This document shows positions 4,983-29,804 of a stretch of DNA of 34,656 bases, piece after piece (within the stretch, counting starts at the first letter, position 1; every line of letters begins with the position of its first letter). The notes below the pieces were generated by a model. It was not told the DNA's origin and did no database searches. It worked only from the letters and a program-made list of their open reading frames with translations. Source of the DNA: a virus; IMG/VR virus record IMGVR_UViG_3300018080_000100; one strand, written 5' to 3'. The translations under genes and the position numbers were made by a program.

Positions 4983-5002
4983 TTTGATCTCATGATCAAA
5001 GT

Positions 5003-8608: not shown

Positions 8609-11600
8609 TCAAGCCCCTACCTTCTCGGTTTTTGGTGGCTTCCCGTACTTCCGATCGATGCCGATGGCATCGCATTCTTCCCACGATAACGTCACACCCC
8701 AGCGGGTGGCGACATCCTGATCGATGCCGAATCTGTAGACCGGGGAGTCGCTGAAAGGGACTCCGTCCAGGTCGCACGCGCGGAACGATACTGCGTCGAC
8801 CATGCACTCTGGCATGATTTCGTTGTATACCGTGTCCAAGCTGCGTATTGGAACCTCCAGGATGACAGCGTCATGGATCTGGAGTACGATCTTGTAACCA
8901 AGTTCCGCTTTACGCGGATGGTTGTATAGATAGAACAGCGCGGTACTGACCGCGTCGGCTACCATACTCTGGAACGGGAAGTTCAGGAACTGGCGCTCCA
9001 GCTCTCCCATCGCTCCACGATCGCTGGTGGTGATACACCGGCGATAACGTCCGAAACAGTTACGAATCCAACCAGGCTTCGCCACCCGGGCCCTCAACTG
9101 TTCTTGCAGTATTGGGATTCCCGGGTAGGTGGCGAAGATCGTATTGATAATCTGCTGAGCTTCAGCCTCGACGATGGGTGCGCCTTCTTCTTGGCACTGG
9201 CGCGCACAGGCTTCTGCTGTGCGGCCGTATCCCACGCCGAAGATGATGTTCTTAGCAGCCACACGCTTGCCCTTCTGTCCAATGCCTGCAAGGCCCGCTT
9301 TCGTGGGTTCACAGTCTAGTCGGAACGATTGAACAGCAATATTCGAGTGGATATCGTACTGGTTGGGGTCGTCATCCTCCAAATTGGCCCTCAGGCAGTG
9401 ATCAAGCATGGTTTTGTCGCGAGACATTACTGCCATACCCAACAACTCGGCGCCTTTATAATCCGCCTCTAGCAGAACGGTGGTTTCGCCGTAGTTGGGG
9501 TCAGTATTGCTCACGATAAACGAACGGATAGGCCATGTGTAACGCTCGCCCAGAATCTTGCGGTAGTCGTCTTCTCTTCGCTTGCTGATGTTCTGGAGTG
9601 GCGGCCTAGCCGATGATGCACGACCTGTTTCCTTCACTTGCTGGAAGGAACTACGCACACGCGAGTCATGGCAGGCATACTTTGCGATGCCTCCCCCGTA
9701 GATCCTCCGGCCAAGTTCGTCCAGTTGCAATTGGTTCTTAACCATTTTTGGCGGACGAAAGACCGATTTAAGGACCTGGTCGATCAAGCGCACATTCCGT
9801 AGTTGGCGTGCAAAAGCATGCTGTGCTCCGAGGATTCCACAGACTTCTTTATCGGTAGATGGTGCCCATTGGTCCTGCTCTCCGCGAGACTCCACCCATG
9901 CCCACGGCTTACCCTTGCCCGTCGTCTTGATGGGCTTGAGGTTCAGCGTGAGCGCGCCTTTCGGACGTACGCTGACGCGCTCGCCCGTTGTCTTGTCGCG
10001 CTTGGTGGAATACTTCTCGCCGAACAGGAACTCGACGCACTGTTGGCTGCTGCGCGGGTTGAAGCCCGGCCAGTTGATGTCCTGGCGCAGCTTCTCCAAG
10101 TGCTCGACGCTGATCGACTGGAAGAGGTCCGTTAGCGCATCCACGCGCTCCAGATCTATCTTCACCCCTTCCATACCCATCTCGCAGAAAGCCGGGAAGG
10201 CCATCATGGAGATGTGGAACGGGACCCAGCAGTCATTGCCGAAGCGGTCGCCATCGAGCAGCTTGCAGTGCACGTCCATGAGCTGACGCGTGTAGGCAGC
10301 GTCCTTGCCGCCATACGGGATGAGGATCTCGTCGGGACACTCGCCGTATCCTTCCAGCTCCTCATCCTTCATCTTGTGTTCGTGTAGGTAGTTACGCTTC
10401 CACTCCTGTAGCTTGACGTCCCAGCGATCTGCACCGCAGAGCCGTGTTGCCATGACCTCCAGCTTGAAATCACCGGTCTCGTTGTACGCGTGGTGCGCCA
10501 ACGCCACGTCGAAGCCGCCGGCGTAGTCACCGCCACGGATGTCCTCGACGTTCTCGGGCACACGGAATCGGTGCGCGATCTTCAAACCGTTGTATTCCAA
10601 CCACGGAAGGTCGGCGGAGAAGAAGCTTCCGCCGATCTGCACATCGTCACGATCGAGCAGCCTGTTAAGCTGGTTGATCGCTGACTGGATGCCGGGACGG
10701 AACGCGTGCGCGCCGCCCTGGTTGCGCAGAACGATGACGGCGGCGTATTCGCCGTGGTGGCTGATCTGGATGGTACGCAGGTACGAGCCGGGCTCGCCTG
10801 GGTGCTGTCCGTGCCACTCGCCGTCGACTCCGATCTTCTTGATCCCAGGCTGTGCCAGAATGTAGTCGACCAGCTCAGCCAGGTCACGCTCTTTGTAGAA
10901 CGTCTGGATCGTAATCGTTTCGTCGGAACTTGCCGTGAACTCTTCGCCGCGAATCAACTTCGTGAAGTTGCGGCATGTCGCCTCAAACTGCGGATACAGC
11001 TCAGTCGTCCTGAGCACTGCCGCCGGATGGACTACCGCCATTACCTTAGGCTTATGGATTATGGGCGCCTGGCCCGCCTCGTCCTGCAGCGGCACATCGA
11101 TCTCGATGTAGCGGCCGATCATGTTACTGACGGTATGGCCTGGGCCACATACGGCCTTGGTAGCTTCTGCTCCAAGGCACAGGATGTAGTCCGGCCGTAC
11201 CAGACGCAGCTCCTGATGCAGCAGCGGCAGGCAGTCTTTGATCCATGCCTGCGGCAGCGCCGAGCTGTTAGAACTGAACTGCTGCCAGCGCACGAGATTG
11301 GTGACATACCAGTCGTCCATCTCAGTGGTAGACAAGCCATGCCGCTCGAACGTCTCGCGCAGCTGGCATCCTGAGGGCCCAACGAAGTTGCGCCCTGCTG
11401 TTGTCTCCTCCATACCAGGCATCTTGCCAACGATCATCACGCGCGGCACATTGTGCTTCTGCACGTATTCGTCGTCGAGATACTTGGGACCATCAGCGGG
11501 ACCGCCCCACAGGTGGCCAGGCACGATGCGTACAGTCTCCTGCCGGCCCTTCAAATTGACGGGCAGGTCGAAGTCGTTGCTGTACAGGCACCGCAGGTAA

Positions 11601-11830
11601 AGGCACTGCAACATGAACCCGACGGATACGACACGTTTGTCCTTGCCGGTGCCCTCTGTCTGCACCGGATTGTCGTCACCGAGGGCACGTGCGTGCTCCA
11701 CGAAGTTCACGCCCGCAGGCGGCATACCCGGTGCTATCAACGGATACATCGCATAGCGCTGCGCGAACGAGTTGTTTGGGTCGCCCCGGAAGATCGCTTC
11801 CAGGTCGTCCACAGAAAGTTCAGGAATCAT
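8609..11830 (-). CDS. DNA polymerase, family A (Pol I-like) with N-terminal family-4 UDG-like domain and 3'-5' exonuclease domain (1073 aa)
   Basis: UDG family 4 motifs are present: GKMPGMEETTAGRNFVGPSGCQL and VVHPAAVL. An exonuclease motif IGVDGEW follows. Pol A motif B (KRVAAKNIIFGVGYG) and motif C (LQIHDAVILEV) are present. The ATG at 11830 overlaps the primase stop as ATGA. Confidence 0.9.
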   Translation of the reverse strand: MIPELSVDDLEAIFRGDPNNSFAQRYAMYPLIAPGMPPAGVNFVEHARALGDDNPVQTEGTGKDKRVVSVGFMLQCLYLRCLYSNDFDLPVNLKGRQETVRIVPGHLWGGPADGPKYLDDEYVQKHNVPRVMIVGKMPGMEETTAGRNFVGPSGCQLRETFERHGLSTTEMDDWYVTNLVRWQQFSSNSSALPQAWIKDCLPLLHQELRLVRPDYILCLGAEATKAVCGPGHTVSNMIGRYIEIDVPLQDEAGQAPIIHKPKVMAVVHPAAVLRTTELYPQFEATCRNFTKLIRGEEFTASSDETITIQTFYKERDLAELVDYILAQPGIKKIGVDGEWHGQHPGEPGSYLRTIQISHHGEYAAVIVLRNQGGAHAFRPGIQSAINQLNRLLDRDDVQIGGSFFSADLPWLEYNGLKIAHRFRVPENVEDIRGGDYAGGFDVALAHHAYNETGDFKLEVMATRLCGADRWDVKLQEWKRNYLHEHKMKDEELEGYGECPDEILIPYGGKDAAYTRQLMDVHCKLLDGDRFGNDCWVPFHISMMAFPAFCEMGMEGVKIDLERVDALTDLFQSISVEHLEKLRQDINWPGFNPRSSQQCVEFLFGEKYSTKRDKTTGERVSVRPKGALTLNLKPIKTTGKGKPWAWVESRGEQDQWAPSTDKEVCGILGAQHAFARQLRNVRLIDQVLKSVFRPPKMVKNQLQLDELGRRIYGGGIAKYACHDSRVRSSFQQVKETGRASSARPPLQNISKRREDDYRKILGERYTWPIRSFIVSNTDPNYGETTVLLEADYKGAELLGMAVMSRDKTMLDHCLRANLEDDDPNQYDIHSNIAVQSFRLDCEPTKAGLAGIGQKGKRVAAKNIIFGVGYGRTAEACARQCQEEGAPIVEAEAQQIINTIFATYPGIPILQEQLRARVAKPGWIRNCFGRYRRCITTSDRGAMGELERQFLNFPFQSMVADAVSTALFYLYNHPRKAELGYKIVLQIHDAVILEVPIRSLDTVYNEIMPECMVDAVSFRACDLDGVPFSDSPVYRFGIDQDVATRWGVTLSWEECDAIGIDRKYGKPPKTEKVGA

Positions 11831-14619: not shown

Positions 14620-15321
14620 TTAGGGGGCAAACATTAGGATGCCTGTAGCCTCGTCTTTCAGTACCTTCGGTATCATGGCACCCCACGTCCGGCTGTAGCC
14701 TATCGGGTCCATCAAGAACTGCGTCAAAGCAGCAGCCCTATGCGCACGCTCTGCCTCGTGCAACTGCTCCGAATGTGCAATGCAGTATCGGTACAGCGCG
14801 GGCAGCTCGTACATTTTGTTCATGAGAACAAAATTCCAAAGCTGCTGGTCCGTGTAGTCAGGGAAGGCGTTAGCTGCCTCGCCCACACAGCATTCGAACT
14901 CCAGCTGGTATGACTGCAGTGCTTGCAGCATGCTGTTGTCGGCACGCTTGTTGTAATCCAGGTAGCGCTTCAACGCCTTCGGACCCTTGAACGTCGTCGG
15001 GTTTGGTGCTACCGAAAGCGTCTCGTCCGCCGGCACGCTGTATCTGTACTGGACGTGGATGAACCGCTCGAAATTGCTGATGTCTGCCCGTATCAGCGTC
15101 CGTGCGAGGTCCATCCAGACAGGCGTAACATGCCGCGGGCGCGACATTGCCACTGACTGGCCGTCGACTTGCATCTCGCGCACTTGGCGCTCGCGCATAT
15201 TGGCCAAAGCCAGCCGATGCGCAGCAATGTACGTCGGGTCTTGTACTGTCGGCAGCTCTTCGGCCTCCTCAGGTGGAGGAGCCTGCATCTGCGCAGCACG
15301 TGGTGGATTAGAATCCGGCAC
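14620..15321 (-). CDS. hypothetical protein (about 233 aa)
   Basis: Track ORF. A GTG start at 15321 has a GAGGA SD 6 nt upstream. It overlaps the SF2 helicase stop by 14 nt. Confidence 0.55.
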   Translation of the reverse strand: MPDSNPPRAAQMQAPPPEEAEELPTVQDPTYIAAHRLALANMRERQVREMQVDGQSVAMSRPRHVTPVWMDLARTLIRADISNFERFIHVQYRYSVPADETLSVAPNPTTFKGPKALKRYLDYNKRADNSMLQALQSYQLEFECCVGEAANAFPDYTDQQLWNFVLMNKMYELPALYRYCIAHSEQLHEAERAHRAAALTQFLMDPIGYSRTWGAMIPKVLKDEATGILMFAP

Positions 15322-22085: not shown

Positions 22086-22467
22086 AATTTTGATCTCCTG
22101 AACAAAGTTCGGGGTCGAGTGTCATCATGAAATGGTAGAAGGCCTCCGGGGGCAGCACCGGGTCATCGAAGTCGATGACATCCGGATCGCGCACCCGAAA
22201 CAGATTTCCGTGCTGGTCCATGACCATTACGCTAGCAGTGCCTTCAACCAGGAGCGTCTTCATGCTGAGCAGGAAGGCGTCACCTACGGGCACCAACGCA
22301 CGTGCCTTAGCCATGATAACATCGACAGGTAGCGATTCCCAGAAGCCCGAACCGTACAGTACGCGTTCGTATTGTGGCGTCTGGAGCATGTCCATCAGGA
22401 GCAGCATCGCCCGGCAATCCACTGCCAAGGCGTCCTCGTACATTTGCTTGAAATGCTCTTGTCCCAT
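22078..22467 (-). CDS. hypothetical protein (129 aa)
   Basis: Track ORF. It is the first gene of the minus-strand unit, directly abutting the divergent csrA promoter region. It overlaps the sbcD-like start by 8 nt. Confidence 0.55.
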   Translation of the reverse strand: MGQEHFKQMYEDALAVDCRAMLLLMDMLQTPQYERVLYGSGFWESLPVDVIMAKARALVPVGDAFLLSMKTLLVEGTASVMVMDQHGNLFRVRDPDVIDFDDPVLPPEAFYHFMMTLDPELCSGDQNYG

Positions 22468-22707: not shown

Positions 22708-22996
22708 CGATATCCGCAAAGAGTCGCTTCTTAGCGCATACTGCCAGCTTATGGGCCTGGGACACGCTCACGCAACGCACTGATTCGCGCTGCCCTGCTG
22801 CCTGTCCACGGCCCGAGGCTGGCCAGTAGTCCGCCAGGTGTTTATCGCCGTACTTGAAACGCCAATGCTGGTCGTTGTCGCTCAGCGTGACAGTGATCTG
22901 CTCGAAGGCAAGCTCGCTCTGGAGCATTTCCAGTTCAGCTGTTGCTGACTGGAGCCGCTGTTTGCGGATCTGCTTCTTCTTGCTCATCTGCTGCAC
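22670..22996 (-). CDS. hypothetical protein (108 aa), doubtful
   Basis: Track ORF convergent with csrA, overlapping its 3' end by 38 nt and the HldE-like stop by ~60 nt. No SD was checked. Its composition is Gln/Lys-rich. Confidence 0.3.
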   Translation of the reverse strand: MQQMSKKKQIRKQRLQSATAELEMLQSELAFEQITVTLSDNDQHWRFKYGDKHLADYWPASGRGQAAGQRESVRCVSVSQAHKLAVCAKKRLFADIANALQVVEVASF

Positions 22997-24428
22997 AGGC
23001 TTTCGCGCGGATGTCGGTCGCGTGCGTATCGAACTCGAGCGTCGTCGTCATGATACGGCCGCCGACCTCCTCCATCGTCAGCGCTTCTGGAATCCGATCG
23101 GTCTTGCCGGCGTGCTCGGGGCCCTTGAACAGGACCGTCGGTACCAGATTGTGGATAAGTGACTTGGGTGTGTCTTCGTCGAACTTGATGATCGCATCGA
23201 CGCACGGTAGCGCTGCCAAACTCGCGGCACGCGTGGCGTAGTCGTTGATCGGCTTGCTCTTGATGCGGGCGGCCGACTCGTCCGAATTCAACATGACGAG
23301 TAGGAAATCGCACTCTTTGCGCGCCTGCTCCAGCATGGAGACATGCCCAGGATGCATCAGATCGAAAACACCGTTGGCTACGCCGAAGTCGCCGCCGCTG
23401 ACCATCATGGATGCGCGCAGCAGCATAGCAAAAGGCAGCTCTATCTTCTTGAGCTGATTGCCAGATACAATGGTCAGCCGCCTGTGTATCTGGTGCAGTG
23501 ACACCGCGGATGCGCCAGGGCGCTCTACCTGTATCGCTGCGGCCGTTGCTGCAAAGTGCAACATGGGCATCAAAGACATATCGGCAGCGACGCCATAGGT
23601 GAACGCTGCAGCAACAGTGTCGCCAGCACCGCACGAGTCGACCGCTAGTGCTGGCACAGCTGGCATCTCGGACGGCGTCTCGTTCGGGCGCACTATGAGC
23701 ATACCGGCAGCGCCACGCGTCACGATGCAATGCACAGCGTGCAGTTCCTTGCAGACCGCCATAGCCGCCGAGCGTACGTCAGCAATCCGCGGGTCGGCGA
23801 CTGCCGCAAGCACCTCATGCTCATTGGGCGTAATGATATGCGCACCACGATAGTGAAGCATATGCTTCGGCGTCGGGTCTACGACCACCGGTACTTTGTG
23901 TGCGCGCGCATACTCGAAGATGACCTGGAGCGTACGCTCCGTGCAAATACCTTTGTCGTAGTCGGACACAAGGATCGCAAGTGGTTTCGCGTCGTCGACA
24001 CACTTCATGAACATGTCGACCACCTTGTCCTCGACATTGGCCTTCGGGCGTGCGTCTATGTCGAAGCGAGCTACCAGACTGTCAGCTGCGTACACGCGGT
24101 GTTTGCAGGGCGTTTGGTAGTTCTTATCCGTGGCTACATACCGCGTCAGCAGCTCCGGTAGTTCCATGTTCAAGAAGTTCCGGCCGGCGGTGTCATCGCC
24201 TACGACGCTTACGAACGCCGTGGGCATCGCCATATGTACGAGATTGGCCATCGCGTTGGCGGCACCGCCCAAGCCAAGGAAGGGCGTACCAGGTGGCACG
24301 TCTATGACGGGAACTGCAGCGGTTTGGTCAAGCTGCTTCACCGTTCCCATGTAGTAGTGGTCCATAAGCACAGGTCCGACTACGACCACGCGGTCGCCTT
24401 CATCCTGTGCTGGGTGATTCGTCGTCAA
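22935..24428 (-). CDS. bifunctional PfkB-family sugar kinase / cytidylyltransferase-like nucleotidyltransferase (HldE/RfaE-like, D-beta-D-heptose 7-phosphate kinase / heptose 1-phosphate adenylyltransferase architecture)
   Basis: The N-terminal ribokinase-like domain has a GAGD anion-hole motif (DSCGAGDTVAAAF). The C-terminal domain carries the (T/H)xGH nucleotidyltransferase motif (GVFDLMHPGHVSMLEQARK). The start is TTG at 24428 with a GGAGAG SD 6 nt upstream. Confidence 0.8.
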   Translation of the reverse strand: MTTNHPAQDEGDRVVVVGPVLMDHYYMGTVKQLDQTAAVPVIDVPPGTPFLGLGGAANAMANLVHMAMPTAFVSVVGDDTAGRNFLNMELPELLTRYVATDKNYQTPCKHRVYAADSLVARFDIDARPKANVEDKVVDMFMKCVDDAKPLAILVSDYDKGICTERTLQVIFEYARAHKVPVVVDPTPKHMLHYRGAHIITPNEHEVLAAVADPRIADVRSAAMAVCKELHAVHCIVTRGAAGMLIVRPNETPSEMPAVPALAVDSCGAGDTVAAAFTYGVAADMSLMPMLHFAATAAAIQVERPGASAVSLHQIHRRLTIVSGNQLKKIELPFAMLLRASMMVSGGDFGVANGVFDLMHPGHVSMLEQARKECDFLLVMLNSDESAARIKSKPINDYATRAASLAALPCVDAIIKFDEDTPKSLIHNLVPTVLFKGPEHAGKTDRIPEALTMEEVGGRIMTTTLEFDTHATDIRAKACAADEQEEADPQTAAPVSNS

Positions 24429-27381: not shown

Positions 27382-27436
27382 GAGACACCTCCATAGGAAA
27401 AAGGTTACGGCGCTGCGCATAGGCAGCACCACGTGT

Positions 27437-27733
27437 TCACCAGTGATACTGGCGAAGGAAATCGCAGATCGGGCCGTCGGCGTCGATCCGCACGAAATCT
27501 ATCTCGTGGCTGTGCGCCACAGACAGTATGTGTCCCACCGAGGGACTGAAGCCAAAGTCGTTAAGGGTCTCTAGGATGCCGTCGCCGAAATCGTCCGGTA
27601 CACCAACCCAGAAACCCTCAGGGTATTCCTCTACACCTAGATCTGCACACTGGCCTAGCGCATTCGCGTCTTCGGCAGTGATATGACAGGTGTTGATCGT
27701 CCAGAGTCGACGAATATCTAGCGGTTCGGTCAT
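27437..27733 (-). CDS. hypothetical acidic protein (98 aa)
   Basis: The ATG at 27733 overlaps the stop of the pilin-like gene as ATGA. Confidence 0.5.
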   Translation of the reverse strand: MTEPLDIRRLWTINTCHITAEDANALGQCADLGVEEYPEGFWVGVPDDFGDGILETLNDFGFSPSVGHILSVAHSHEIDFVRIDADGPICDFLRQYHW

Positions 27734-28155
27734 TGCATTAGCTCCCGTACCGCATCTTCGTCGCGCGAATCGACGTCGATCTCAGTCACTGTGCCGTTCG
27801 CAATGTCGTTCGACATCACGGACAAGAGGCGCCCCCTGGGAGCTACATTGCCTTCATACTGTATAATTCCCTGAATTTGCGCTGCCTTGAGGCGTACTTT
27901 GCGCACCTGCGCTACAAGCGAAAGACAATCAGCGTCAGCCGCCTTCACATAGAAATGGTGCCGACTATCGATGACACCTTCCCACTGAGCCTTGGCTGCG
28001 ACATACTGTAAGCGCGTTACCGGACCGAACACTTCCTCGGTACGCGTAGTGTGTCCGACAGAGAACTTGCCGATCGCGCCGACGAGCAGCGAAGCCAATA
28101 TCCCCACGATCGCGATGACTACTAGTAGCTCTACAACGGTAAACGCTCGACGCAT
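27730..28155 (-). CDS. prepilin-type N-terminal cleavage/methylation domain protein (type IV pilin / pseudopilin-like), 141 aa
   Basis: The N-terminus MRRAFTVVELLVVIAIVGILASLLVGA matches the class III signal peptide / N-methylation motif ([G/A]F-T-hh-E-hhhhhhh...). An AAGGAGG SD lies 7 nt upstream. Confidence 0.75.
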   Translation of the reverse strand: MRRAFTVVELLVVIAIVGILASLLVGAIGKFSVGHTTRTEEVFGPVTRLQYVAAKAQWEGVIDSRHHFYVKAADADCLSLVAQVRKVRLKAAQIQGIIQYEGNVAPRGRLLSVMSNDIANGTVTEIDVDSRDEDAVRELMQ

Positions 28156-28282
28156 TTGGAGCCTCCTTTTTGCTCATGAGATCAAGATTGAAACTACCCA
28201 GCCTGCCTATCCTCGCTGAAGCCCGTGGAATCTCGAGACAGCGAGGTGTGGTTGAGTGTACTTGTAACCTGTTGTCCGACAA

Positions 28283-28361
28283 GGACTTAGGTCAACACCC
28301 CTCGAATGGCGGTTAGCTCTTAGAAAATGTATATCTAAGTCCTCATTACATTCGGACTTAG
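28283..28361. repeat. three copies of the octamer GGACTTAG: direct copies at 28283-28290 and 28354-28361, and an inverted copy (CTAAGTCC) at 28335-28342
   Basis: Seen directly in the 290 nt AT-richer non-coding region between the membrane-protein gene and the pilin-like operon. It is a candidate operator/promoter region for the pilin-like operon. Confidence 0.4.
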
Positions 28362-28446
28362 AAACCCGCCTCGGCCGGATATTCTATCCGTCCTTCTCCG
28401 GGGTGGTAGTTTTGAAGACTATTTGGGGGTATCGGAGAAATAGGTA

Positions 28447-28983
28447 TCAGTGTCCTGCCTTAGCACTAGCAATTACCAGACAGACAGCTCCAGCTGTCGC
28501 CATGATACCCGTCACCCAAAAGCCCATGCACCAGGCTACCTGGCTGGGGTAAACGACAATGTTTGGCGGTAGCGTGACCTCCACGCCCTCGCTGTCATCG
28601 TCCAGGAGCGTCTCTCGTAGTTTCATCAGTTGGTTGGACACCGTCAAGGGGTCCGCGTCGGTTGGGAACGCGCGCAACTCGTCCAGCGCTGACTTCACAT
28701 TGTTGTGCCAGAAGGTCACATCACAATCAGGGGTATACCACAATACGTGTGAGCGCCCTGTCGTGCAGCCGCGCCGGTTCATTCCTTCGAGCGCCGCCGT
28801 CAGCTCTGTCTTGGCCATCTCGATCGAGTTGGCATCCGCGGCGCGCTTCAGTCGCCCGCCAACATCTTGATCGAATCCGATCTCCATGACAAAGCGTGTG
28901 ACTACCATGGCTAGCAGTGGTACGCACAGTACGCACCCACCAATGAACCATCCACCAGCTCCGCTACTCCGTCTGTAACTCAT
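28447..28983 (-). CDS. predicted membrane protein with N- and C-terminal hydrophobic helices
   Basis: Hydrophobic stretches are WFIGGCVLCVPLLAMVV and FWVTGIMATAGAVCLVIA. The preferred start is the ATG at 28983, with an AGGAAGGA motif upstream. The track start is 29025. Confidence 0.6.
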   Translation of the reverse strand: MSYRRSSGAGGWFIGGCVLCVPLLAMVVTRFVMEIGFDQDVGGRLKRAADANSIEMAKTELTAALEGMNRRGCTTGRSHVLWYTPDCDVTFWHNNVKSALDELRAFPTDADPLTVSNQLMKLRETLLDDDSEGVEVTLPPNIVVYPSQVAWCMGFWVTGIMATAGAVCLVIASAKAGH

Positions 28984-29362
28984 CGTGTATCCATCCTTCC
29001 TGTACGGACCAGATGATCCGTTCAATGTTCAAATCGTCGGCCAGCAGGACCGGCGACGGACTGTGTTCTTTGGGACGAAGGCCGCGCGCACGACAACGTG
29101 CGATCGCCTTCGGTTCTAGGTTCTGAAACTTGTATAGGTAGTCCATCGCGTCTGCGTGGTGTCGAAACACGTGCCAGCCGGATAGATACCATGTCTTAGA
29201 TGTGCCGTCGCGTACGCGCTTCTTCGCGGCGACCATCCACTTGTTCACAGGCATGACCTTTGAACCGGCCAGGCCATGGAACAACGTCTTGATATTGCCA
29301 TCGACGATGTCGACTATCTTGTAGACGACCTCGCCTGGTGCGGCGCTAACCCGATTGGTCAT
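28964..29362 (-). CDS. hypothetical protein (132 aa)
   Basis: Track ORF. It overlaps the ndk stop by 17 nt and the next gene start by 20 nt. Confidence 0.5.
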   Translation of the reverse strand: MTNRVSAAPGEVVYKIVDIVDGNIKTLFHGLAGSKVMPVNKWMVAAKKRVRDGTSKTWYLSGWHVFRHHADAMDYLYKFQNLEPKAIARCRARGLRPKEHSPSPVLLADDLNIERIIWSVQEGWIHDELQTE

Positions 29363-29774: not shown

Positions 29775-29804
29775 ATTTTGTTCTCCTGATCAAAATTGGC
29801 CGCG

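Follow-up and report, generated by a model that had tools for sequence, protein, structure and literature searches.

The subject of this analysis is a gene for a 141-aa pilin-like protein, which starts MRRAFTVVELLVVIAIVGILASLL and lies in a 34,656-nucleotide stretch of DNA, IMG/VR virus record IMGVR_UViG_3300018080_000100. The whole of this stretch is referred to here as the window, and its source is very probably a phage. The gene is preceded by a noncoding leader of 291 nt (28156-28446), beyond which the upstream gene ends at position 28447, and it is followed by an overlapping gene for a DUF5983 protein (Table 1). An earlier sequence-only reading, which had put the upstream noncoding region accurately at about 290 nt, took the protein to be a type IV pilin or pseudopilin at the head of an operon, and the octamer repeats of the leader to be operator sites. 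That the gene heads an operon is a reasonable description, given the ATGA overlap with the DUF5983 gene and the additional same-strand genes downstream.

Prepilin-type signal and predicted globular domain

The N-terminal sequence of the protein is MRRA/FTVVELLVVIAIVGILASLL, in which a short basic leader is followed by Phe at +1, Glu at +5 and a hydrophobic helix of ~25 residues. The sequence-only reading had described this as a textbook class III prepilin signal, and the N-terminus passes the cutoffs of both corresponding profiles, scoring 22.8 bits with Pfam PF07963 N_methyl (gathering cutoff 21.2) and 25.3 bits with TIGR02532 (cutoff 16.3). By its sequence, the leader would be cleaved after Ala4 by a prepilin peptidase. 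Position -1 is occupied by Ala, so the protein lacks the Gly at -1 that is a criterion for type IV pilins. The N-termini of pilins in the PDB (Geobacter PilA-N, Myxococcus PilA, and Neisseria PilE) align over approximately the first 30 residues, and the alignment is restricted to residues 2-33 of the protein. None of the named pilin and pseudopilin families (GspG/H/I/J/K, PilA, ComG, FimU, and others) gave a match above its cutoff, and the matches were confined to the N-terminus. The best NCBIfam match, to GspH, is weak (residues 3-60, 26 bits against a cutoff of 80), and PHROGs likewise returned N-terminal matches only, a weak "pilin" family among them. The likeness to cellular pilin-like proteins is secure over approximately the first 30-35 residues and suggestive to approximately residue 65. 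No match to the protein was found among 50,697 isolated phage records or in the viral contigs that were scanned with it.

The remainder of the protein is predicted to differ in shape from a pilin. A single-sequence AlphaFold prediction was unusable beyond the N-terminal helix (predicted local distance difference test score, pLDDT, 45.9). AlphaFold 2 with an alignment of seven family members gave a pLDDT of 85 and a predicted template modeling score of 0.67, and most of the globular part exceeds 90 in pLDDT. The model consists of a helix (residues 7-31), strands (37-52, 57-62, 66-71), a second helix (77-89), further strands (93-101, 107-117, 122-124) and a C-terminal helix (130-140). It contains no pilin fold: there is no alpha1 helix of about 50 residues packed on a four- to five-stranded antiparallel sheet, and no alpha1C/beta-sheet head. 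What is modeled is an oligonucleotide/oligosaccharide-binding (OB) fold with a central helix, which matches the solved B subunits of AB5 toxins. The highest structural match score was obtained with pertussis toxin S5 (12.2; 84 residues, 2.2 Å), followed by SubB and PltB (10.7), the protein-glutaminase pro-domain (9.5), ArtB (9.3), LT-IIb B (9.2), SilF (~9), CTB/LTB (8.6), Stx2B (8.3), and OB folds of the SSB type (6-8). The Foldseek matches include CcmE (8ce8_E), a comparison with BFVD yielded generic OB folds only, and the family profile matched only pilin N-termini in the PDB and no toxin B-subunit profile. The globular part of the model shares the AB5 B-subunit shape; homology is not claimed. 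Of the pilin or pseudopilin that was originally proposed, the class III signal is real, but the resemblance ends with the N-terminal helix, and in place of the expected pilin head the model has an OB fold like that of AB5 B subunits.

The shape of the domain raises the question of an AB5-like toxin borne by the phage, with the pilin-like protein as B subunit and the overlapping downstream gene as its partner. The best structural matches are indeed AB5 B subunits, and a pair of genes that overlap by ATGA recalls ctxAB. However, compared with the B subunits of known toxins (pertussis toxin S5, SubB/PltB/ArtB, LT/CT B, Stx B), the protein is only 8-13% identical, gives no profile match, and carries a class III signal and membrane-anchoring helix in place of a Sec signal. 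The putative partner is a 98-aa DUF5983 protein with neither an enzyme domain nor a signal peptide, and the likely hosts are environmental bacteria of the Planctomycetota-Verrucomicrobiota-Chlamydiota (PVC) group. We regard a toxin subunit as barely credible, and an AB5 toxin operon was rejected on the grounds that there is no A subunit and no Sec signal. A nucleic-acid-binding OB fold (ComEA/SSB-like) was also set aside: the domain is acidic in most of the family (pI 5.1-6.3 in five of seven members), which argues against nucleic acid binding, and the SSB-type matches score below those to toxin B subunits.

Table 1. Positions of the pilin-like gene, its leader elements, its neighbors, and related features of the window
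Feature	Position	Strand	Remarks
Pilin-like gene, 141 aa	27730..28155	-	Prepilin-type signal and hydrophobic helix, then predicted OB-fold domain
Leader peptide MRRA	28144..28155	-	Predicted prepilin-peptidase cleavage after Ala4 (RRA/FTVVE), from alignment to TIGR02532 and PDB pilins
alpha1N-like hydrophobic helix, residues 5-31	28063..28143	-	Glu at mature position 5; AlphaFold 2 helix 7-31; matches PDB pilin N-termini
OB-fold domain (predicted), residues ~37-125	27781..28047	-	AB5-toxin B-subunit shape; C-terminal helix 130-140 follows
Shine-Dalgarno sequence AAGGAGG	28162..28168	-	6 nt 5' of the ATG; the sole AAGGAGG-N6-ATG of the window
Palindrome TTGATCTCATGAGCAA	28170..28185	-	Copy of TTGWTC-N4-GAWCAA just 5' of the Shine-Dalgarno sequence of the pilin-like gene
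All TTGWTC-N4-GAWCAA copies in the window	4984-4999, 14816-14831, 22090-22105, 28170-28185, 29778-29793		
TTGWTC-N4-GAWCAA copies in relatives	L011:575, L012:66/8276/9972, L014:9974, L016:1267/9967, L020:141, L022:307		
Octamer GGACTTAG copies	28283-28290, 28354-28361, 28335-28342	+, +, -	Inverted pair 11 nt apart, extends to 9 bp
Third octamer copy, CTAAGTCC on the coding strand	28283..28290	-	Core TAAGT alone kept in relatives (invariant columns T125-T129)
Hairpin H1	28373..28393	-	GC-rich, just past the upstream gene; both-side changes in 6/9 pairs across relatives
Hairpin H2, from the inverted GGACTTAG pair	28334..28362	-	9-bp stem; conserved 11-nt "loop" GAAUGUAAUGA with G-A/G-A flanks, two inner pairs, and a GNA triloop
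Hairpin H3	28297..28312	-	CCCC..GGGG type in relatives; weaker in the window phage; terminator-like score in L014
DUF5983 (YeeW-like) gene, 98 aa	27437..27733	-	Pfam PF19419, 46.3 bits; start overlaps the pilin-like stop by ATGA
Terminator-like hairpin, then TTTTT	27407..27432	-	After the DUF5983 gene; consensus match only, count not above shuffled expectation
CsrA homologue, 58 aa	22531-22707	+	Pfam PF02599, 82 bits; sole confidently assigned plus-strand gene; adjoins one palindrome copy

Family, probable host and possible function

When 1.84 billion representatives were searched exhaustively with HMMER, five full-length relatives of the protein (P0002, P0003, P0005, P0008, and P0025) were recovered at 28-43% identity, and one further member is encoded at locus L022. 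A word-indexed search of 5.8 billion proteins found the identical protein alone, and a profile search added one member; the divergence in alignment A1 is too high for a pattern search. The family is thus tiny, with approximately seven members, all of them encoded at one syntenic site of related uncultured phage contigs, where the gene order is ligase, NT5C, NDK, two small genes, the long leader, the pilin-like gene, in some cases DUF5983, an HldE-like gene, and SbcCD. Homologues of the pilin-like gene fill the same slot in L011, L012, L014, L016, L017, and L022, and because all full-length relatives share it, the open reading frame (ORF) represents a real, conserved gene. In L020 the leader, the palindrome, and the Shine-Dalgarno sequence are kept, with an 84-aa gene and DUF5983 immediately after them and no pilin-like gene (L020 1-440 compared with L012 9850-10730). 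Judged from this clean presence/absence polymorphism, the gene is accessory.

The prepilin motif is unevenly retained within the family. It is canonical in P0002 (KRG/FTLIE) and P0008 (RPG/FSAVE) and near-canonical in the window protein (RRA/FTVVE), P0025 (RNA/LTLIE), and the L022 protein (NR/LTLME), and TIGR02532 matches three of the seven members at E<=0.01. What the family conserves is the OB domain together with the membrane anchor, and the peptidase motif is dispensable in some lineages.

The N-terminus also gives an indication of the host. The nearest cellular N-termini are those of pilin-like proteins that also read RRAFTLVE and those of N_methyl+DUF1559 proteins. In a genome scan with the pattern [VI]E[LM][LI]VVIAI, nearly all of the best 80 loci belong to Planctomycetota, Verrucomicrobiota, or Lentisphaerota. 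Ala is found at -1 in 37 of 91 prepilin-type motifs of the PVC group, alongside Gly in 42 and Ser in 5, in a sample that is biased toward relatives of the query, and Ala at this position is therefore normal for the group. Since the N-terminus with its Ala at -1 resembles the prepilin signals of Planctomycetota and Verrucomicrobiota, the host is probably a PVC bacterium. The planctomycetal N_methyl+DUF1559 (SBP_bac_10) proteins (PMC8567305) have a nearly identical N-terminus (xRRAFTLVELLVVIAIIGIL), frequently with Ala at -1; by comparison, the window protein is much shorter and phage-encoded, and it gave no match to PF07596 (SBP_bac_10) at E<=1.

The interpretation we prefer, with a probability of roughly 0.4, is that the gene encodes a membrane-anchored periplasmic accessory protein that engages or blocks the type IV filament machinery of the host without being a true pilin, and that the hairpin in its leader acts at the RNA level. 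The gene would be transcribed behind the structured leader, and its translation would start from the strongest ribosome-binding site of the window, a distinction that the earlier reading had also given it; AAGGAGG precedes a start codon nowhere else in the window. From what is established for pilin biogenesis, the protein would be expected to insert into the cytoplasmic membrane with its N-terminus inside and its C-terminus outside, and the host prepilin peptidase would probably remove the first four residues. The mature alpha1N-type helix, with its Glu5, could then dock into the assembly platform of a host type IV filament, either a pilus or a system like the type II secretion system (T2SS). 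The mature protein could not pack as a pilin does because it has no alpha1C/beta-sheet head, and without a head for subunit packing it would most likely cap or poison the machinery or serve as a binding module displayed at the tip. Either outcome would alter the surface of the infected cell, for example to exclude other phages, and would suit a role in exclusion or takeover of the surface such as has been shown for prophage FimU mimics (PMC12952977). Superinfection exclusion is possible; the cleavage, the localization, and any effect on pili are inferences.

It is well established that phages can encode pilus components which block pilus-dependent phages: prophage FimU-like pilins block phages that use the pilus tip, and virulent phages carry PilA-like genes, some of only 60 residues (PMC12952977). 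The window gene has in common with P-FimU of F10-like Pseudomonas prophages and with the PilA-like proteins of Xylella prophages and virulent phages (PMC12952977) that it is a phage gene for a protein with a prepilin-type N-terminus. A surface-modifying or exclusion role would suit the location of the gene and its accessory character, and some PilA-like proteins described from phages have nothing beyond the N-terminal helix. The differences are that those proteins resemble host FimU or PilA over their full length and have predicted pilin folds, whereas the window protein is pilin-like over approximately 30 residues only and has a predicted OB head, and that its host is probably a PVC bacterium. 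These precedents (PMC12952977), a class III signal that passes its thresholds, and the weak GspH match over residues 3-60 as the best in NCBIfam would all be expected of a genuine phage-made minor pilin or pseudopilin, a PilD-processed subunit of pilin fold that is incorporated into, or poisons, the fiber of a pilus or T2SS. The modeled globular domain is the wrong one for such a subunit, and we consider a genuine pilin decidedly improbable.

A second point of comparison is provided by modular type IV pilins with grafted non-pilin domains, which are widespread (PMC8179133). In PilB and PilC of Streptococcus sanguinis, a class III signal and alpha1N carry a non-pilin module that in such proteins is often a lectin or adhesin (PMC8179133). 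The window protein shows the defining combination of an N-terminal IPR012902/N_methyl match with an extra non-pilin domain, here the modeled OB fold. In contrast to the modular pilins, which keep a complete small pilin module, none is modeled between its helix and the OB domain. CcmE has the same topology, an N-terminal transmembrane anchor followed by a periplasmic OB fold, but the window protein has no heme-binding motif and no sequence similarity to CcmE, and the likeness is architectural only.

Several observations weigh against the preferred interpretation. P0003 and P0005 have neither a small residue at -1 nor Glu at +5 and retain the hydrophobic helix alone; such losses in orthologues argue that the family does not owe its conservation to an interaction with prepilin peptidase or the pilus machinery. 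A Planctomycetales genome has at least 41 genes with the prepilin motif, and that of Tuwongella about 100 (PMC8567305); a signal that sits on some hundred non-pilin proteins in PVC bacteria may be a mere sorting or anchoring device. No genes for a pilus, a T2SS, peptidase A24, an assembly ATPase, or a platform protein were found in the window. The AlphaFold 2 model was built from seven sequences only, and at 8-13% identity the resemblance to toxin B subunits may be analogy within a very common fold.

The main alternative is a generic bitopic membrane protein, the N-terminus of which is only an anchor of pilin ancestry or a host-style sorting signal, and the OB domain of which has a task unrelated to pili or T2SS, such as envelope glycan or protein binding, envelope remodeling, or the timing of lysis. 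This would agree with a prepilin motif that has decayed in P0003 and P0005, and in part in L022, beside a hydrophobic helix and an OB domain that persist, with the placement of the signal on many non-pilin proteins in PVC genomes (PMC8567305), with the existence of transmembrane-anchored periplasmic OB folds elsewhere, as in CcmE, and with the upstream neighbor (28447-29025), which is also a predicted membrane protein. However, the window protein, P0002, P0008, and P0025 all keep the leader, Phe or Leu at +1, and Glu at +5 in register; a charged Glu within a plain transmembrane anchor would be unusual unless selected; and phage proteins aimed at pili have precedents (PMC12952977). We hold a bitopic protein of this kind to be only slightly less likely than the preferred interpretation.

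The protein is best regarded as a phage-encoded mimic of the entry signal that type IV filament subunits carry, and phage pilus mimics have a precedent. Its architecture and its probable PVC host are unusual, and the elements of its leader are undescribed. Phage pilus components have been recognized as anti-phage defenses only recently, and so far only in Pseudomonas-type systems with true pilin folds. The present case would widen the theme to an uncultured giant-phage lineage, to probable PVC hosts with an expanded and poorly understood set of prepilin signals, and to a toxin-B-like OB fold in place of the pilin head. If the protein is processed and does meet the pilus or secretion machinery, it would provide a handle on the role of the prepilin sorting signal in Planctomycetes. 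It would also represent a new design of viral interference with type IV filaments.

Leader hairpins, octamer repeats and a recurrent palindrome

The leader contains three copies of the octamer GGACTTAG, two direct and one inverted with an 11-nt gap, as the sequence-only reading had noted. Four copies are present in the window against 0.63 expected, a number reached in 1 of 100 shuffles. The interpretation of the octamers as operator sites fared less well: the sequence GGACTTAG is not kept in the relatives, and what is kept is a hairpin with compensatory arms, H2, formed by the inverted pair. H2 is found once per locus in five diverged phages, with arms CTAAGTCC, CTTAGTCC, ATTAGTCC, AAGAGTAC, and ATCAGTCT and with the loop RARYGNARYGA preserved. 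The 5' arm, loop, and 3' arm are TCTAAGTCC, GAATGTAATGA, and GGACTTAGA in the window (L001); TCTTAGTCC, GAATGTAATGA, and GGACTAAGA in L011; ATATTAGTCC, GAATGAAATGA, and GGACTAATAT in L014; TAAGAGTAC, GAACGTAGTGA, and GTACTCTTA in L016; and CAGTCT, AAGCGAAGCGA, and AGACTG in L012. The sequence TATA(C/G)A follows H2 in each of the five loci.

In the five-sequence alignment H2 is 100% paired, and 7 of its 11 pairs have changed on both sides in a compensatory manner. The inner pairs of the loop co-vary as well (AT/AT, GC/GC, AC/GT) and are flanked by the conserved, non-complementary G-A/G-A, and H2 of L012 includes one G.U pair on the coding strand. The covariation score observed for the entire leader structure was reached by none of 500 shuffles, and 90.7% of it is paired, compared with 33-45% in slid controls. 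Because the loop is conserved, the arms are variable, and the asymmetry is conserved, an RNA stem-loop is favored over an operator, and from these comparisons the inverted GGACTTAG repeats most likely represent a conserved hairpin that works at the RNA level rather than a sequence-specific operator.

Some evidence speaks against this. The single-sequence fold of the leader has a z-score of only -2.05, co-varying arms of an inverted repeat would also be expected of co-evolving palindromic operators, and five sequences are a small sample. If a dedicated DNA-binding regulator of the operon used the three octamers as operator half-sites, their clustering within 79 nt, their excess in the window, the retention of the inverted arrangement in relatives, where co-evolving regulators would also keep palindromes, and the invariant core TAAGT of the third copy would be explained. 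However, the arms differ among relatives and the 11-nt spacer is conserved, which is the reverse of what operators typically show. An RNA stem-loop would suit the conserved but asymmetric G-A/G-A flanks as well as the compensation of the inner pairs and the G.U pair, and another element of the locus, the palindrome TTGWTC-N4-GAWCAA, has the conserved half-sites, variable center, and several copies per genome that suit an operator better. We consider octamer operators unlikely.

Five copies of TTGWTC-N4-GAWCAA are present in the window, where 0.13 would be expected. The majority of copies are 1-25 nt 5' of start codons; NDK, the SbcD-like gene, and the pilin-like gene itself are among the genes concerned. 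The sequence of the copy 5' of the pilin-like gene is kept at the equivalent place in L011, L012, L014, L016, L020, and L022 and also precedes NDK in relatives. At NDK and the SbcD-like gene the variable center is AGGA, which is the Shine-Dalgarno sequence itself. The palindrome is therefore a candidate operator or ribosome-binding-site hairpin of this phage family and, on sequence grounds, a better operator candidate than GGACTTAG. A connection with the phage CsrA, one copy of the palindrome adjoining its gene, would be speculation. Together with the leader hairpin, the palindrome provides candidate regulatory elements for a hitherto uncharacterized phage group.

The most specific combination of these features would be a hybrid, built by a lineage of uncultured giant phages of PVC bacteria, in which a host prepilin signal and alpha1N are joined to a toxin-B-like OB lectin domain, processed by the host prepilin peptidase, and loaded onto, or made to jam, the filament machinery, as a new viral route by which pili or secretion are rewired or shut down, all under a novel RNA leader with tandem G-A and a GNA triloop and under the family palindrome, possibly tied to CsrA. 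As a whole, this elaborated version is improbable.

A structural switch in which the third GGACTTAG copy pairs with the 3' arm of H2 (16 nt, 81%) was considered and found unsupported, with 5-6 of 8 positions matching in relatives by eye. Searches against Rfam 15 yielded no match at the gathering score anywhere in the window, nor any at E<=10 within 28100-28500, and a sigma-70 promoter scan of the leader found no match. Inserted small ORFs are tolerated in the leader of L011 and L022. In L014 (9336-9425) and L012 (~9626-9700), ORFs for hydrophobic peptides of ~29 aa occupy the stretch that separates the leader hairpins from the upstream membrane-protein gene; the window has none.

Neighboring genes and phage lineage

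The DUF5983 gene is translationally coupled to the pilin-like gene via the ATGA overlap, and the two are also paired in L011, L012, L016, and L022. In L012 and L022 an extra gene of 76-78 aa separates them. An alignment search with DUF5983 found one distant viral locus only, without a pilin-like gene, and a comparison with the PDB yielded no informative relative. In enterobacterial prophages DUF5983 is encoded downstream of CbtA toxins (PMC10790755; bioRxiv 10.64898/2026.06.09.728211). Distant DUF5983 homologues in the viral contigs L018 and L023 are preceded by a small zinc-finger-like gene. PADLOC returned no matches for the pilin-like gene or seven neighbors. The upstream neighbor on the minus strand, a protein of 178-192 aa with a hydrophobic segment at either end, has a middle domain (GGRLKRAAD...SNQLMKLRETL) that is conserved in L012 and L014, and it is predicted from its sequence to be another envelope or membrane protein.

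All genes of the window except that for CsrA are on the minus strand, and they form a block for replication and nucleotide metabolism: PolA fused to uracil-DNA glycosylase and 3'-5' exonuclease domains, primase, DnaB-like helicase, SbcC- and SbcD-like proteins, a RecA-like protein, NDK, and the HldE-like kinase/adenylyltransferase. The majority of the remaining ORFs have no family assignment. The identical 141-aa protein is encoded by 17 metagenome contigs, the longest of ~226 kb, and IMG/VR lists a related contig. The lineage looks like one of uncultured giant phages, and the window itself holds no structural genes. The 1073-aa DNA polymerase A (8609-11830, minus strand) has an N-terminal domain of the uracil-DNA-glycosylase superfamily in addition to its 3'-5' exonuclease domain, and its best match among the isolated phage records is at most 26% identical. 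The HldE-like bifunctional sugar kinase/nucleotidyltransferase (22935-24428, minus strand; PfkB and CTP_transf_like domains) is kept in related phages and hints at phage-directed synthesis of nucleotide sugars of the ADP-heptose type.

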